DNA of 64,000 nt, taken from Spirochaetaceae bacterium (GTDB lineage Bacteria > Spirochaetota > Spirochaetia > DSM-27196 > Alkalispirochaetaceae). Shown one piece after another: positions 3,600 to 57,526 of the stretch (the first letter of the stretch is position 1; every line of letters begins with the position of its first letter). Made by a program: the position numbers and the translations under genes. Below the pieces are notes generated by a model. The model did no database searches, was not told where the DNA came from, and saw only the letters and a list, made by a program, of their open reading frames with translations. Location: assembly GCA_007695175.1 (NCBI GenBank), contig REEH01000143.1, forward strand, positions 69,152-133,151. Reading direction: 5' to 3'.

Positions 3600-4571
3600 T
3601 CAATCACCCTCCCACGTGCCCAGCATGCGCTGCCGGATCTCGTCCCTGAGGGCGACGATCATTTCCTGGATTTCCGAATCCGGTTCAAGGCCACGCGCGG
3701 CCGCGTCGGAGGGGGTGATGACCGAGGCCTTCATCTGGAGCCCCTCCTCCCGAAAACGAATTTCCACTTTCCCGAGGTACTTTGAGTATTCGTTGGCCTG
3801 GACAAAGAGCGTATCGTGATGCACCTCACCGTGGAGAAGCAGATCGTGAGAGTGCCCGTCCACGAAGAGATCGATCCCGGAGACCTCTTTCACGATGTCG
3901 GTGGAGGGGTAATTGCGTCCGAAACCCACGTGGCCCAGGGCAACGACGAGATCCACCTCTTCCTCCCGCAGTTCCGCCACCGCGGTGTGCGCCGCATCGA
4001 CCATATCATCAAAAACCAGGCCCTCAATGTTGCGAGGGTGCGTGGTCTGGTAGGTATCGGGCGTGGCAAGACCAAAAATCCCGACTCTGTAGTCGCCCAC
4101 CCGGCGGATCACCCAGGGTCGAAAAAGGCGTTCATTCTCCTTGTAGACGTTGGCCGCCACCAGATCAAACTCCATCAGGTTCTCAAGCTCCAGCAGGTGC
4201 GGGTACCCGAAGTTGAAATCATGGTTGCCCGGGACCATCACGTCGTACCCGGCGGCGTTCATCGTTTCCACCACGCTTCTGCCCTGCAGCTGGTTGGCGA
4301 TCGGGCGTCCGTGAAGCGTATCGCCCGCATCCAGTACCAGTACGTTCCCGTATCGGGCGCGATAATCCTCCACCAGCGTTTTGATCGTGGGCATCCCGAG
4401 CAGACCCTCCGCAACTTCAATCCGCCCGTGAATGTCATTGGTATGGAGAATGATCAGATCCGGTGTATCCGATGTGTCCGCAAACAGGAGGGACGGGGCG
4501 ATGAGCGCCAGGGCGATCATCAGCAGGCGCAGGCACGTCGTGCCCCCGGTCCGTTCTTTTGTCCTCTTCAT
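3600..4571 (-). CDS. Secreted metallophosphoesterase (5'-nucleotidase/UshA N-terminal domain family)
   Basis: Start at MKRTKERTGGTTCLRLLMIALALIAPSLLFA (signal peptide) after a GGAGGAGG RBS. Motifs ILHTNDIHGR, GDTLHG, GNHDF/GNHEF-like, GHSH. Confidence 0.65.
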   Translation of the reverse strand: MKRTKERTGGTTCLRLLMIALALIAPSLLFADTSDTPDLIILHTNDIHGRIEVAEGLLGMPTIKTLVEDYRARYGNVLVLDAGDTLHGRPIANQLQGRSVVETMNAAGYDVMVPGNHDFNFGYPHLLELENLMEFDLVAANVYKENERLFRPWVIRRVGDYRVGIFGLATPDTYQTTHPRNIEGLVFDDMVDAAHTAVAELREEEVDLVVALGHVGFGRNYPSTDIVKEVSGIDLFVDGHSHDLLLHGEVHHDTLFVQANEYSKYLGKVEIRFREEGLQMKASVITPSDAAARGLEPDSEIQEMIVALRDEIRQRMLGTWEGD

Positions 4572-4625
4572 TTGATCCTCCTCCTGATCCTTAATTGCTG
4601 ATTTCAATGTATCAAACCTGGCGCG

Positions 4626-4681
4626 CCCCGGCCACCCGGCCCCGGCCACCCGGCCCCGGCCACCCGGCCCCCGCCACCCGG
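4626..4681. repeat. Tandem repeat, 4 x 14 bp (CCCCGGCCACCCGG; 4th copy has one substitution) in a divergent intergenic region
   Basis: Read directly: copies at 4626-4639, 4640-4653, 4654-4667, 4668-4681, between the metallophosphoesterase start (4571, minus) and the histidine kinase start (4742, plus). Confidence 0.85.
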
Positions 4682-4741
4682 CCCTGGTGATGTTGCGCCC
4701 CTCCCTCAGGGGTAGTACTATCCATGCGGAAAGAGGAAACA

Positions 4742-6535
4742 ATGAGCCGCCTATTCGATAGTGTAAAGACCAGGCTGACTCTGACGGTGGCCCTCATCGT
4801 TCTTTTCTACACGGCTCTGCTCCTCGCGCTGACCTACGGGCTGATGCGGGAGATGGCGGAGCGTAACTCCGCGGAGCTCGCCGATACGGTGCTGGAGGAA
4901 GCGGATACGCACATAACCCGGTTTTTCCGCAATATGGAGGAGGTGGCCTACTCCCTGGCCCGGTACTCCACGGTATACGACAAGGACATTCCCCGCCTGC
5001 GGGAGCTGATTCTGACCAACGTCTGGGCTCGGCGCAGCTACATGCGCGCCTTGTATCTCGGCACGGAGAACGGAAACATGTACGAGTGGGGGTACGGCGA
5101 GGGTTTCGTGGATAACGCACCCGTCTTTGCTCCCGGGTATGATCCGCGGGTGCGCCCCTGGTACCGGGATGCGCTCGCCGCCGACGGGTTCGCCGTGACC
5201 GATCCGTACCTCTACGCGAGTATCGACGACTACGGAATAACCTGCGTCCTGCCCGTTTATCACCCCGAGTCCGGAGAGCGGGTGGGCGTGCTGGGGCTGG
5301 ATATCATGCTGGACGCGCTCCAGAACCTGGTGGAGGAGTTTGAGATCAGCATGGGCGGCAAGGTGCTGCTGGTCGATCGCTCGGGCAGCCCGATCGTGGA
5401 CCAGTTTTCCTCCACCGCCGGGGGTGAATTGCGGGCGTCGATACGGGAGGTGAGCGGGCAGGAACTCCCGGGCCGCTTCATGGCCGATTCGGGAGGAGTC
5501 CCCCATTTCTTCTCCTACAAGAAGAATCCCGTCACGGACTGGATGATCTTCGTGGGGCTTCCCCTGCCGGAAATCATGGCTTCCACCTATGCCGGAATCA
5601 GACTCAGCGTGGCGCTCTATTTCTTTCTGATGATACTCCTGCTCATAACGCTGGAGTGGTCCGTCGGGCGGATGGTAATCGAACCGGTGGAGAAGATGGT
5701 TCAGACGATCGACCGGATGAGATCCGGGGAGGGAAGTGCCCGGATAGACATCGCGAGAAATGATGAGTTCGGACTGCTGGCGCGGAGCTTCAATGGGCTT
5801 GCCGACAGAGTCCAGGAGTATGCCCGGGACATGGAGAGGCAAGTCCAGGAGCGGACGGACCGTCTGCAGATTCTGCAGCAGGAAAACCTCCGTCTGCGCA
5901 TCATCGAGGAAAAGGAACGCATTTACGGATACCTGCACGACTCCCTTGGCTCCCGATTGACCAATATTTTCATCTCCAACAACGTGGCCCGATCGGCCGC
6001 CACGGTGGACGGCGGGGTGTTAAAAGACATGCAGGACCGCATCGAGGAAAACGCCCAGGCCGGACTGGACGACCTCAAGGAGATTCTCTCCAGCAGCATG
6101 GAGATCGACCGGAGAATGATCGATTTCTCCATCGTGCTGGAGTTGCAGGTCCGGAGACGCCTGGAGCTGAAAGCGATCGGGTTTTCCTACGACGGCAGGG
6201 TTGCGGAGTTGAATTTCCTGCCCCGCGGGATGGCGGTGGAAGTGGAAAAAGTCCTGCAGGAGCTCGTCACGAATGTGCTCAAACATGCGGATGCGCGGCA
6301 GGTGAACCTCACCACCGATCTCACCGGGGAGCGACTGCACCTGGTATTTCGCGACGACGGCCGCGGGTTCGATCCTCGGTCCCTGCCCGTCGGATGCTTT
6401 GGATTGCGGGGAATCCGGCAGCGTCTGGAGCGGCGGGGCGGCTCGCTGAACATCACCTCCACTCCCGGGGAGAGAACGGAGGTTGTGATCGACCTTCCCC
6501 TGGTGGAATGTGAATCGGGAGACCGGGGTGAGTAA
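4742..6535 (+). CDS. Sensor histidine kinase: TM - Cache-like periplasmic domain - TM - HAMP - HisKA_3 - HATPase_c
   Basis: AGAGGA RBS 5 nt before ATG 4742. Two hydrophobic segments flank a ~250-aa extracytoplasmic domain. H-box YGYLHDSLGSRLT (HisKA_3, NarX/DegS type). C-terminal ATPase G-boxes (DDGRGF, GLRGIRQR). Confidence 0.8.
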   Translation: MSRLFDSVKTRLTLTVALIVLFYTALLLALTYGLMREMAERNSAELADTVLEEADTHITRFFRNMEEVAYSLARYSTVYDKDIPRLRELILTNVWARRSYMRALYLGTENGNMYEWGYGEGFVDNAPVFAPGYDPRVRPWYRDALAADGFAVTDPYLYASIDDYGITCVLPVYHPESGERVGVLGLDIMLDALQNLVEEFEISMGGKVLLVDRSGSPIVDQFSSTAGGELRASIREVSGQELPGRFMADSGGVPHFFSYKKNPVTDWMIFVGLPLPEIMASTYAGIRLSVALYFFLMILLLITLEWSVGRMVIEPVEKMVQTIDRMRSGEGSARIDIARNDEFGLLARSFNGLADRVQEYARDMERQVQERTDRLQILQQENLRLRIIEEKERIYGYLHDSLGSRLTNIFISNNVARSAATVDGGVLKDMQDRIEENAQAGLDDLKEILSSSMEIDRRMIDFSIVLELQVRRRLELKAIGFSYDGRVAELNFLPRGMAVEVEKVLQELVTNVLKHADARQVNLTTDLTGERLHLVFRDDGRGFDPRSLPVGCFGLRGIRQRLERRGGSLNITSTPGERTEVVIDLPLVECESGDRGE

Positions 6536-7175
6536 AATCCGGGTGGCGATCTGCGAGGACGTGCGGGAAGTACGGGAGGGGTTTCGGTATCTGCTGAACC
6601 TGGACCCGGAAATACAGGTACTCGGTGCGTACAGCGACGCGGAATCGCTGCTGGAAGCCCTGGAGACGGTGATCCTTGAACCGGATATCATTCTCATGGA
6701 TATCGGTCTGCCCGGTATGAGCGGGATCGAGGCGACGGGCATCATCAAAGAACGCTTTCCCCGGATGGAAGTACTGATTCTGACGATCTTTGAGGAAGAG
6801 CGGAAAATTATCGACGCTATCGAACGAGGTGCCGCGGGGTACGTGATGAAGAACACCCGGCCCGGGGATCTTGTGGCGCAAATCAAGGAGCTCAATGCCG
6901 GGGGGTCGCCCATCAGTCCGGGGGTGGCGCGCAAACTCTTCGCTGAGCTGCGACGGGAGCGGTCTCATTCCTCCGGTACCGAATACCATCTTACCGCTCG
7001 GGAACATGAGGTGGTGCATGCCATCGTGGAAGGGCTCACATACCGGGAGATAGCGGACCGGTACGGCATTGCCGGATCGACGGTCAAGAAGCATATCCTC
7101 AACATCTACAAAAAACTTGATGTGCGCTCCAAGGTTGAGTTCATGAAGAAGGTGATGAACTCGGACCTGATATAA
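6510..7175 (+). CDS. Response regulator, NarL/FixJ family (REC + LuxR-type HTH)
   Basis: REC motifs ICEDV...D54-like DIILMDIGLPGMSG. C-terminal HTH LTAREHEVVHAIVEGLTYREIADRYGIAGSTVKKHILNIYKKL. Overlaps the kinase stop; a GTG start at 6528 after GGAG is an alternative. Confidence 0.85.
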   Translation: MNRETGVSKIRVAICEDVREVREGFRYLLNLDPEIQVLGAYSDAESLLEALETVILEPDIILMDIGLPGMSGIEATGIIKERFPRMEVLILTIFEEERKIIDAIERGAAGYVMKNTRPGDLVAQIKELNAGGSPISPGVARKLFAELRRERSHSSGTEYHLTAREHEVVHAIVEGLTYREIADRYGIAGSTVKKHILNIYKKLDVRSKVEFMKKVMNSDLI

Positions 7176-7194: not shown

Positions 7195-7212
7195 ATACAC
7201 CAAATGGTGTAT
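7195..7212. promoter_or_regulatory. 7-2-7 inverted repeat ATACACCA-AA-TGGTGTAT, a candidate NarL-family regulator site
   Basis: Perfect palindrome immediately after the regulator stop and ~135 bp upstream of the symporter start. No T-tract follows, so it is not a terminator. Confidence 0.3.
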
Positions 7213-7313
7213 ATTCCCCGTCGCACCGGCCCTTAAAAGCCCAAAAATGAAGAAAAGATACACCCTTGGGGGCATATACGGGAGAGAAAAAGGGCCTGAG
7301 AATACTGTATCTA

Positions 7314-7344: not shown

Positions 7345-8628
7345 ATGAGTGAAGGGAAAAAGGGCGCGCTGGACTGGTACTTCAAGTCCAACCTGCTCAT
7401 GCGCATTCTGATAGGTCTCATTCTGGGAGCGATTGTAGGGCTCCTGGCGGGCGATTCCATAATGTGGGTCGCGCCGTTCGGGACGCTTTTCGTTAGGTTG
7501 CTGCAGATGATCGTCATGCCGGTTATCTTCGCAACTCTGGTGATGGGTTCCGCCAGCATCAGCCCGGCGGAACTGGGTAAAGTGGGTGTGAAGATCGTTC
7601 TCTTCTACCTTTTTACTTCGGCTCTTGCCGTGGCGATCGGCCTCGGTATGGCCAATATCTTTCGACCCGGTTCCGGGCTCGGCCTGACCGGCGCGGACGG
7701 CGTGGCGGGACGGGCGCTGCAGCAGCCGGCGCTTCGGGACACGTTGCTCAATATCGTGCCCACCAACCCCTTTGGAGCACTCGCGAGTGGCGCGGTTCTG
7801 CCGGTGATTTTCTTCGCGATTCTCTTTGGTATCGGTATCTCCTACCTCAAGATCAGCAGTGACGAACGCATCCGGAAGGCCGGAGAGACGCTCTTCGTGA
7901 TCTTTGACGGTGCCGCCGAGGTCATGTACATCATGGTTCGCTGGGTACTGCAGTATGCTCCCATCGGTGTGTTTGCTCTTCTGGCGGTTGTTTTCGCCCA
8001 GCAGGGTGCCGCTGCGGCGGGTCCTCTGGGAATCGTCATTGTAGCAGTGTACCTGGGACTTATCCTGCACGTGGTGGTGGTCTACGGCGGAATCCTGAAG
8101 ATCAACGGTCTGAGCTTCGTGAAGTTTATCAAGGGCTCCCGGGAGGCTATGCTCACCGCTTTTGTTACACGCAGTTCCGGTGGTACGCTTCCGGTGACCA
8201 TGCGCAACGCTGAAGGAAACCTCGGGGTAAGCCGCAAGGTGCACTCCTTTACGCTGCCCCTGGGTGCAACGATCAACATGGATGGCACGGCGATCTACCT
8301 CGGCGTGTGTGCGCTCTTCATCGGTTACGCTATCGGGATGCCTCTCGGTTTCGGCCAGCAGATCACGATCATCCTGACGGCGGTACTCGCTTCAATCGGC
8401 ACGGCGGGCGTGCCCGGTGCGGGGGCGATCATGCTGCTTATGGTGCTTCAGTCGGTGGGTCTCCCCATCGAGGACGGCTCCGCAGTGGCCGCCGCGTACG
8501 CGATGATCCTCGGTATCGATGCGATCCTCGACATGGGACGTACCTGTGCCAACGTGACCGGTGACCTGACCGGTACCTCAATCGTCGCCAAGAGCGAGAA
8601 CGAACTGGATCTCTCCTGCTGGAGCTGA
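7345..8628 (+). CDS. Dicarboxylate/amino acid:cation symporter (DAACS family, GltP/GltT-like)
   Basis: 427 aa, ~8 TM plus re-entrant loops. Typical DAACS N-terminus ([17 protein letters not shown]) and conserved C-terminal core ([28 protein letters not shown]). Confidence 0.85.
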
Positions 8629-56215: not shown

Positions 56216-57526
56216 CTAGTAGAGGTAGCGGAATCCCAGTGCGAGGGTGGCCGACTCCGCACGGCCCCAGCCGTATACGCTGGTATCATCTCCGGCCTGG
56301 ACCGACACGAAGGCGAGCATGTGGAATCCCTGGAAAACGTTCCACGCTACGCCGCCGGTTATCTCGGCGGATGCATCGATCGGGGACACCAGGCCGCGAC
56401 CGATCACCTGCACCGTCCGACCCGCCCCCCATACCAGCTCCGGGTGCAGTTGCACCGCGTATCCGGCTTCAGGATTCCGGAGGTCGTTCCAGGCGCCGGC
56501 GGGGGTAATCAGCGCTTCCAGCCGCGCCGCCAGGGTATGGTCCCGGCCGATCGGGAAGAGATAAAACGCGCCGAGGCTGAGCAGGGAGTAGTCTTCCAGC
56601 ACGTGTCCAATGCGCCCGCGGCCGGGTGGGGGACCATCCTCCGGCAGATGCAGGGCAGCGGCACCGTAGAGATCCGCCCCGAGGCTTCCCTGCAGCGCGA
56701 TCGCGGTACGGTGCACCCCGGCGGAACCGTCATAGAGCCAGGAGGGTTCCACCGTGAGAGGGCCCGCGGAACTGTGCAGGCGCAATCCCGCTCGGGAGTC
56801 CGCCGCCGGCGCTACCGCGGTCGCCCCGTTGCCGGTGGTGCCGGTGGAGGGGCTGCCGTCCGGATCGTCCGGGTAGTCCTGGGCGGCATTCGCTGTCCCG
56901 CCCAGGCTCAGTTCGGGCAGGGGCGGCAAGGCGACCGCCTCCAGATACCCCAGCGCACCAACGGGGAAATACAGCGCGAGAAGCCACGTCGTCTCATCCC
57001 GCACATCCTCGGACCGGGTGAAGTCCGCGGTGCTCCGCCCGTCGGCGCCAAAGATCAGGTCCGCCGCGTTGAAAAGGGACCCCAATCCCCAACTGAGACG
57101 ATCCCTCCCGGTGGTGACGCGCATCGAGTATTCTTCGGTCAGGGGGAAACGGAACCGGATGCTCGCCCGGGGGACTTCAAGGAATGCCGGGGAGGACGCG
57201 CCGGAGGAGTCCTCCAGCAGCGTCAGGCGCAGCTGGAGCCGGGACTGGACGTTTCGGTCTCCGGCGGAGCGAAAGTCCACCGTTCCCCGGGTCAGACCGG
57301 TGAGACCCAGTTCCTCACCGGTCCAGACCGTAGCGGCGAAACTCTCGATCTCCGTCTGGACGCGCGTCTCCGCGCCGAGAACTCCCGCCCCGCCAAGGAG
57401 CAGTACCATTGCCGCCGCGGTCGTCGCGCCTCTCAAGGCGCCACGCACGACGCCACGGCCGGCCCCACGGCCGGCGCCACGCCCCGTCTCGAACGATGCC
57501 CGCTTCCTCTGCTCCAGCGTTACCAT
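56216..57526 (-). CDS. Putative outer-membrane beta-barrel protein with Arg/Gly-rich N-terminal region
   Basis: Ends ...LALGFRYLY (aromatic C-terminus typical of OMPs); alternating beta-strand-like pattern; N-terminus MVTLEQRKRASFETGRGAGRGAGRGVVRGALRG before the hydrophobic MVLLLGGAGVLGA. ATG 57526 overlaps the upstream gene by 7 nt. Confidence 0.5.
   Translation of the reverse strand: MVTLEQRKRASFETGRGAGRGAGRGVVRGALRGATTAAAMVLLLGGAGVLGAETRVQTEIESFAATVWTGEELGLTGLTRGTVDFRSAGDRNVQSRLQLRLTLLEDSSGASSPAFLEVPRASIRFRFPLTEEYSMRVTTGRDRLSWGLGSLFNAADLIFGADGRSTADFTRSEDVRDETTWLLALYFPVGALGYLEAVALPPLPELSLGGTANAAQDYPDDPDGSPSTGTTGNGATAVAPAADSRAGLRLHSSAGPLTVEPSWLYDGSAGVHRTAIALQGSLGADLYGAAALHLPEDGPPPGRGRIGHVLEDYSLLSLGAFYLFPIGRDHTLAARLEALITPAGAWNDLRNPEAGYAVQLHPELVWGAGRTVQVIGRGLVSPIDASAEITGGVAWNVFQGFHMLAFVSVQAGDDTSVYGWGRAESATLALGFRYLY

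Follow-up and report, generated by a model that had tools for sequence, protein, structure and literature searches.

What is a run of four GC-rich 14-bp units doing between the start of a secreted phosphoesterase gene and the start of a sensor kinase gene that is transcribed away from it? The locus belongs to a Spirochaetaceae bacterium and was analysed within a stretch of 64,000 nucleotides, the whole of which is called the window here. The initial annotation took the repeat for a slipped-strand phase-variation switch acting on both divergent genes and offered an array of regulator-binding sites as a second option. Overall, we find that the array is real, that the phase-switch reading is weak, and that a binding-site array in the form of an amplified promoter box fits best.

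Positions 4626-4681 of the window read as three copies of CCCCGGCCACCCGG followed by CCCCCGCCACCCGG, which carries a G to C substitution at 4672. Tandem Repeats Finder reported the array with a period of 14 and 97% matches (Table 1). Its score of 113 was the highest of the 28 rows returned for the 64-kb window, the runner-up scoring 61, and a separate repeat search found the same register. The four tandem copies with one substitution in the last, as first described, are therefore borne out by the sequence and by both searches. The distances initially given are off by no more than one base, since the array is 54 nt from the phosphoesterase ATG (at 4571 of the minus strand) and 60 nt from that of the kinase (at 4742), and it was correctly placed in the divergent promoter region. 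The unit is built internally as 6+2+6, CCCGGC-CA-CCCGGC, which accounts for a gapped period-8 reading in the Tandem Repeats Finder output and makes slippage possible in steps of 6, 8 or 14 nt. When the 14-mer was sought in the 64-kb window at up to two mismatches, three other scattered sites were found against a chance expectation of 2.5, and no further tandem copies. With the other sites scattered and at chance level, the four adjacent copies represent a local tandem event rather than a dispersed element. A search of 4300-5000 against Rfam gave a single lncRNA match at chance level (E = 0.47). Neither the additional copies of a dispersed repeat, sought in these 64 kb of the genome, nor the Rfam family of an RNA element was thus found. 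A second GC-rich tandem repeat, GGCGCCACGCCC in four copies at 80% identity, is present at 57437-57484 of the window; it overlaps long ORFs on both strands and is probably coding.

Table 1. Positions of the features discussed, by locus
Feature	Locus	Positions	Strand	Remarks
Secreted metallophosphoesterase / 5'-nucleotidase-like gene	window	3600..4571	-	323 aa, N-terminal catalytic domain only; Pfam Metallophos 2.6e-14
Region of the phosphoesterase cassette	window	3600-4741		
Shine-Dalgarno AGGAGGAGGA of the phosphoesterase gene	window	4576..4585	-	sequence read
Predicted extended -10, phosphoesterase promoter	window	4606..4614	-	TGaTACATT; predicted start near 4599
Tandem array, 14-bp unit CCCCGGCCACCCGG	window	4625..4684	.	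4.3 copies
Array units	window	4626-4639, 4640-4653, 4654-4667, 4668-4681		last one with G to C at 4672
Proximal box, GGTGGCCG on the phosphoesterase coding strand	window	4629..4636	-	TGGCCG hexamer (4634-4629) at the predicted -35 position, 17 nt from the -10
Predicted kinase-operon promoter	window	4693..4721	+	TTGCGC-N17-TACTAT: -35 4693-4698, -10 4716-4721, start near 4728
Sensor histidine kinase, dCache_1-HAMP-HisKA_3-HATPase_c	window	4742..6535	+	domain matches
NarL/MctR-like response regulator (receiver + GerE helix-turn-helix)	window	6528..7175	+	domain matches
DctA/GltP-type symporter	window	7345-8628		downstream of the response regulator
Region corresponding to the cassette	L010	1042-2500		
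Region corresponding to the cassette	L020	2173-2500		
Region corresponding to the cassette	L022	3-511		
14-bp unit in metagenome contig	L005	109-167		4.1 copies
14-bp unit in metagenome contig	L006	5-63		4.1 copies
14-bp unit in metagenome contig	L007	1405-1443		2.8 copies
14-bp unit in metagenome contig	L004	1595-1623		2.1 copies

The genes on either side had been correctly identified, one as a Metallophos/5'-nucleotidase-like protein with a signal-peptide-like N-terminus and the other as a dCache-HAMP-HisKA_3-HATPase kinase. The N-terminus of the phosphoesterase aligns with those of its homologues, and the matches of the protein to NCBIfam models of the UshA/Nt5e type fall below the cut-offs of those models; its sequence is like that of the N-terminal, catalytic half of UshA/5'-nucleotidase-type enzymes. 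Among the GTDB species representatives there is one relative only, a soda-lake sediment MAG labelled Spirochaeta sp. (L003), with kinase and phosphoesterase identities of 72% and 68%. Other relatives are annotated as Spirochaetaceae or Alkalispirochaeta. Three species besides that of the window share the divergent arrangement of phosphoesterase and kinase, namely L003, L019 (the same species as L015-L017; kinase 73%, phosphoesterase 76%) and L023 (phosphoesterase 74%). Three more species, L010, L020 and L022, have the kinase without the phosphoesterase. More distant phosphoesterase homologues (L024-L032, 63-68% identity) occur in other gene contexts without an upstream box, L025-L032 being from AT-rich genomes, and were set aside as uninformative.

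A sigma-70 consensus scan of 4400-4900 returned no promoter at threshold, so both promoters were inferred from conservation across species instead. On the kinase side, TTGYGY-N17/18-TACTAT is kept upstream of the orthologous gene in the window, L010, L019, L003, L022 and L023. On the phosphoesterase side, every one of the four species that have the divergent arrangement (window, L019, L003 and L023) has kept TTTGnTACAYT, containing the extended -10 TGnTACAYT, at 34, 26, 68 and 6 nt from the ATG. The phosphoesterase promoter predicted from this conservation is TGGCCG-N17-TGaTACATT, at 4634-4606 on the minus strand. Its hexamer TGGCCG agrees with TTGACA at three of six positions and would count as a poor -35 in E. 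coli. The possibility that TGGCCG and what follows form a sigma-54 (-24/-12) promoter was rejected by eye, the GC element at -12 being absent and not conserved.

The predicted 17-nt spacers, that of the phosphoesterase at 4612-4628 and that of the kinase at 4699-4715, both fall outside the array. The array itself extends from about -27 to -85 relative to the predicted phosphoesterase start and from about -47 to -102 relative to the predicted kinase start. On this predicted architecture it is located between two divergent core promoters and inside neither -35/-10 spacer. Two further features of these promoters were observed in passing. An inverted repeat, CCCCT-N5-AGGGG, is found at 4698-4712 of the window, within the predicted kinase spacer, and its right arm runs on as AGGGGTA; it is not conserved in the spacers of the relatives, L010 having the palindrome CTGGTACCAG there. 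In L023, the public call for the phosphoesterase (P0123, 334 aa) places the start ATG inside the 17-bp repeat (L023 1685-1747), while alignment with homologues puts the true start 21 codons downstream, 6 nt after the predicted -10. The L023 phosphoesterase mRNA may thus be leaderless.

A short box precedes the -10 element of the phosphoesterase promoter in each of the four species compared. It reads YGRYCACC on the plus strand and GGTG(G/A)(C/T)C(G/A) on the phosphoesterase coding strand, or more fully YGRYCACC(N)CCGG and CCGG(N)GGTGRYCR, and the 14-bp unit of the array consists of this box together with CCGG and CC. GGTAATCG is a designed mutant form of the proximal box GGTGGCCG. From the box to the -10 the distance is 17, 18, 17 and 17 nt in the four species with the divergent arrangement; from the box to the kinase -35 it is 64, 34, 49 and 40 nt, and the rest of the intergenic DNA varies as well. 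The pattern GGTGRYC-N14-18-TGNTANNNT has a single match in the 64-kb window, at this site (0.12 expected), and among 32 fetched loci it matches the orthologous phosphoesterase promoters only. In the relatives that lack the phosphoesterase (L010, L020 and L022) the box was sought and is absent, two of them, L010 and L022, retaining the kinase promoter. The fixed spacing to the -10, together with the absence of the box where the phosphoesterase is missing, assigns the box to the phosphoesterase promoter, at its predicted -35 position, and from these alignments we infer a role as a -35 or as an activator box.

The phosphoesterase gene, its promoter and the box appear to travel together. All are present in the window, L019, L003 and L023. 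L010 has a MatE gene upstream of the kinase instead, and in L020 and L022 the cassette is absent and a chorismate mutase gene is directly upstream, the kinase gene of L020 beginning 4 nt past it. The kinase promoters of L022 and L023 are nearly identical, yet L023 alone of the two has the cassette. By this pattern of presence, absence and replacement across species, the phosphoesterase is a cassette, gained or lost at a place that has the chorismate mutase gene on one side and the kinase promoter on the other.

The number of boxes differs between the four lineages. L019 has one copy and L023 has 2.7 near-identical copies of a 17-bp unit; L003 has three degenerate copies (CGGCCACCACCGG, CGGTCACCTCCGG and CGGTCACGGG) spaced 17 and 20 bp, and the window has four copies of the 14-bp unit. 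The box is thus multi-copy in three of the four, and its orientation is identical in every copy of all four species. Counts of GRYCAC exceed those in mononucleotide shuffles, with P of about 0.002 in both the window and L003 and of 0.013 in L023. As the periods differ between lineages, the box has been amplified independently at least twice. The L003 copies have a core, CGGYCAC, common to all three, and the sequences between them have diverged; the retention of this core in old copies hints at constraint beyond the proximal copy. A conserved core, a fixed position relative to the core promoter and several copies in the same orientation in more than one species are what characterise a direct-repeat box array, and all were found here. 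The periods of 14 bp, 17 bp, and 17 then 20 bp show no regular helical phasing of the boxes, and this lack of common phasing and the single copy in L019 argue against constraint on the extra copies.

Public samples of the same species are limited to two, SRR7901803 and SRR7901806 (Logan assemblies), in which the kinase is identical to that of the window and the phosphoesterase differs by one residue. An exact-protein look-up of the window phosphoesterase returned no record; the one-residue variant (P0121) was recovered by homology search. A search of JGI metagenomes with the kinase found no relatives. Both junctions of the array were recovered in the two independent assemblies. In SRR7901803, the contigs that contain the left and right junctions (L008 and L002) end exactly 30 nt into a perfectly periodic tract. 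This is how a k=31 graph ends when it meets a tandem loop. The array can thus not be put down to a single faulty assembly, and a perfect repeat of at least 45 nt is implied for that strain; the number of whole units is unreadable from such contigs, which break inside the array. The contigs of SRR7901806 break elsewhere, at 4684 (start of L001) and 4594 (start of L009), and not 30 nt into the repeat, which could reflect mixed variants or low coverage.

The left junction in SRR7901803 is the same as in the window. At the right junction, L002 continues from CCACCCGG with CCCCGGC and TCTGGTG, and the window continues from CCACCCGG with CCCCCGCCACCCGGC and CCTGGTG. The two differ by an 8-nt indel (hexamer plus CA) and two substitutions, all within the last ~24 nt of the array. 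By comparison, the flanks of L002 show 8 SNPs in ~2,570 bases (~99.7% identical to the window), and L001 shows 5 differences in ~4 kb. Conspecific strains thus diverge more in the array than in its flanks, and the array evolves faster than its surroundings. This variation within the species comes from one conspecific strain and one variant, a sub-unit step of 8 nt rather than a change by whole units.

On balance, we give about an even chance to the reading in which the -35 or activator box of the phosphoesterase promoter was amplified in tandem and the resulting copies have some part in regulation. The amplification of this short, conserved box would be specific to the lineage, and its most likely source would be replication slippage or unequal recombination between the CCGG/GGCC microrepeats of the box itself. 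The proximal unit would provide the -35 or an activator contact for the extended -10 promoter of the phosphoesterase, and the three further units would be additional sites for a box-recognising transcription factor or for sigma region 4. Since each unit is the same as the next, a whole unit gained or lost restores both the geometry of the proximal box and -10 and the right-hand junction, leaving both core promoters intact. Such a change would alter how many boxes there are and how far apart the divergent promoters stand. With the core promoters unaffected by unit number, any effect would be graded, like that of a rheostat, rather than on/off. The array is thus probably a modest promoter variant of the tuning type and not a classical on/off switch. 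The promoter function, a binding factor and an effect of copy number are what we infer from the sequence comparison. Several findings count against an amplified functional box. The sigma-70 scan was negative at its threshold, and TGGCCG is a poor match to TTGACA; the likely operator of the neighbouring response regulator, described below, is unlike the box; the spacings of 14, 17 and 17/20 bp are helically inconsistent, which is unusual for cooperative binding by one factor; L019 manages with one copy, so the extra copies are not required; and the comparison covers four species.

The irregular spacings and the single copy of L019 also suit a neutral origin, in which a sequence prone to slippage may have thrown off extra copies of no consequence. 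In its full form, this explanation holds that a slippage-prone GC-rich box has left extra copies in unconstrained DNA between the promoters, with no regulatory effect, and we regard it as possible though not probable. It agrees with a unit that is itself a repeated hexamer and with the sub-unit step seen between strains. It also agrees with the behaviour of the same 14-bp unit elsewhere: a scan of JGI metagenomes for two copies of it found four unrelated contigs only, with the unit expanded to 2-4 copies (Table 1), and so the GC-rich unit expands readily in other contexts, with no family defined. In two of these contigs, L005 and L006, the array stands just past the stop codon of an ORF ending in AEFAFHALVHNLFKAIGTGHLTPTTC, the C-terminus of which looks transposase-like by eye; the two share ~65 bp beyond the repeat and then diverge, which would fit the end of a mobile element. 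The array is also like the intergenic VNTRs used in strain typing, which have units of 10-20 bp in few copies and differ between close strains. Such VNTRs are usually treated as neutral, whereas the array described here is built from a phylogenetically conserved promoter box. The three old copies of L003, which hold the 7-nt core while their spacers have diverged, suggest constraint beyond the proximal copy, and the multi-copy state of three lineages and the invariant orientation also speak against neutrality.

The amplified-box reading has also to be set against the switch first proposed, in which frequent and reversible changes in unit number would flip the phosphoesterase, the kinase operon or both through promoter geometry. 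In its favour, the repeat is located in the divergent promoter region, conspecific strains are less alike in the array than in its flanks, and the contig breaks in SRR7901806 could mean heterogeneity within the sample. There are precedents, nadA (PMC2791445) and sabA (PMC4081817), for repeats that precede a core promoter and are able to modulate expression. The proposed mechanism, in which 14-bp steps re-phase the -35 against the -10, is not supported here, as for both genes the conserved predicted pair is found at the edge of the array or beyond it and its spacer is unaffected by whole-unit changes. Contingency loci use tracts of 1-7 nt, and a 14-bp unit at four copies should slip far less often. 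In Haemophilus influenzae, TA repeats stand in the shared spacer of the overlapping divergent promoters of hifA and hifB, and the number of units sets promoter strength. The array resembles that repeat in its position between two divergently transcribed genes, and differs from it in that the hif repeat is between the -35 and -10 of both promoters while both predicted spacers here are outside the repeat. On the predicted architecture, a spacer switch of the hifA/B type is excluded. Whereas promoter-spacer switches of the hifA/B or opc type have a tract within the spacer and a hypermutable unit of ~1-7 nt, the tract here is outside the spacers and its unit is 14 bp in 4.3 copies. No whole-unit variant was seen among contigs that break inside the array, and a free-living sediment spirochaete has no obvious need for stochastic switching of a nucleotidase. 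Of the phase-variation claim, what stands is some instability, seen at the right end in a conspecific strain; the classical, highly mutable short tract does not, and we consider such a switch improbable.

A third candidate source of control is the neighbouring two-component system, which is the sole regulator encoded at the locus; no cognate regulator of the box was identified. If the array were made up of binding sites for the NarL/MctR-like regulator, it would serve autoregulation of the kinase operon as well as divergent control of the phosphoesterase. Regulators of the GerE type, such as NarL and MalT, are able to use direct repeats. The region downstream suggests a different binding site for this one. 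A perfect palindrome, TACACCAAATGGTGTA, is found at 7196-7211, between the response regulator and the DctA/GltP-type transporter gene, with a second, related element, TACACCCTTGGGGGCA, at 7259-7274. Both elements are conserved in five species (window, L010, L020, L019 and L003) and, judging by sequence, are probably the operator through which the NarL/MctR-like regulator controls the transporter. The palindrome is absent from the region between phosphoesterase and kinase. The box has the CACC core in common with the putative half-site TACACC and nothing more of the likely operator, so the neighbouring response regulator is not a good candidate for binding it. The operator form TACACC-N4-GGTGTA, kept in five species, has an invariant TA that is missing from the box; moreover, species without the phosphoesterase retain the two-component system and not the box, and it is from the phosphoesterase -10, rather than from the kinase -35, that the box keeps a set distance. 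This explanation is very unlikely. Scarcely credible is a role for non-B DNA, in which the G-rich minus strand would form one or two G-quadruplexes and the C-rich strand an i-motif, and these structures would affect divergent transcription. The 64-kb window has only six canonical G4 motifs, of which that on the minus strand of 4626-4684 is the longest, and 4620-4690 holds nine G3+ tracts where at least four with loops of 1-7 nt suffice. Against such a role, the duplex is very GC-rich and stable, the hairpin or cruciform potential of the single strands is no better than that of shuffles (z = 0.2 and 1.25 for hairpin energies), and G4 motifs are missing from both strands of the three orthologous intergenic regions (L019, L003 and L023), which makes the G4 potential a by-product of amplification.

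The comparative data thus favour the second option of the initial annotation, a repeated array of regulator-binding sites, in the form of an amplified, predicted -35 or activator box. Direct-repeat activator boxes that replace or overlap the -35 are familiar as the Pho boxes of PhoB, the MalT boxes and the half-sites of AraC/XylS regulators. As in those systems, the box here is asymmetric and in one orientation, with a proximal copy at the predicted -35 and further copies upstream, and the predicted promoter has a good extended -10 and a poor -35. The target, a secreted phosphoesterase/nucleotidase, is also a typical kind of Pho-regulon gene. Unlike those boxes, the sequence here is not known to fit any of their consensus sequences, and its period of 14 bp (17-20 bp in relatives) departs from the 10-11 or 21 bp at which successive sites face the same side of the helix. 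Unlike anciently maintained activator sites, the copies are identical and recently amplified. GGYCACC is similar to the repeat units of actinobacterial PhoP, and CTGTCG occurs in L023; a Pho-box reading is no more than a possible lead, and its periodicity is a misfit.

Repeats that modulate promoters from a distal position provide the other comparison. The TAAA tract of Neisseria meningitidis nadA lies upstream of the -35 (PMC2791445), and the T-tract of Helicobacter pylori sabA adjoins the -35 and acts as a rheostat (PMC4081817). Like these tracts, the array is upstream of the core promoter and not in the spacer, and changes in its length would shift distal spacing or number and give graded expression. 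In the nadA and sabA tracts, units of 1-4 nt are repeated many times and switching has been measured to be frequent, in contrast to four copies of 14 bp, and the tracts have known binding proteins, namely NadR, IHF and the RNA polymerase alpha subunit (PMC2791445, PMC4081817). Distal-repeat modulators such as nadA and sabA, together with multi-box activator promoters, are the closest known counterparts of the array.

A bolder form of the amplified-box reading can be put forward tentatively, although we hold it to be rather unlikely. The conserved box would travel with a secreted-nucleotidase cassette that is gained and lost, would be amplified independently in several lineages, and would offer in its copy number an evolvable, slippage-driven dial of expression, possibly one that couples the cassette to the divergent two-component operon. 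If true, this would represent contingency-style tuning of a promoter in free-living sediment bacteria rather than in pathogens. If the extra boxes are neutral, the array is merely a marker for strain typing, and in either case the repeat should not carry an annotation as a promoter-spacer phase switch. If they are functional, the lineages would constitute a natural series of one, about three and four copies with periods that differ by lineage. They would show promoter-element duplication tuning expression outside the pathogens in which repeat-mediated regulation has mostly been studied, and the box would add a new cis-element to those of haloalkaliphilic spirochaetes, one recognised by an uncharacterised regulator.
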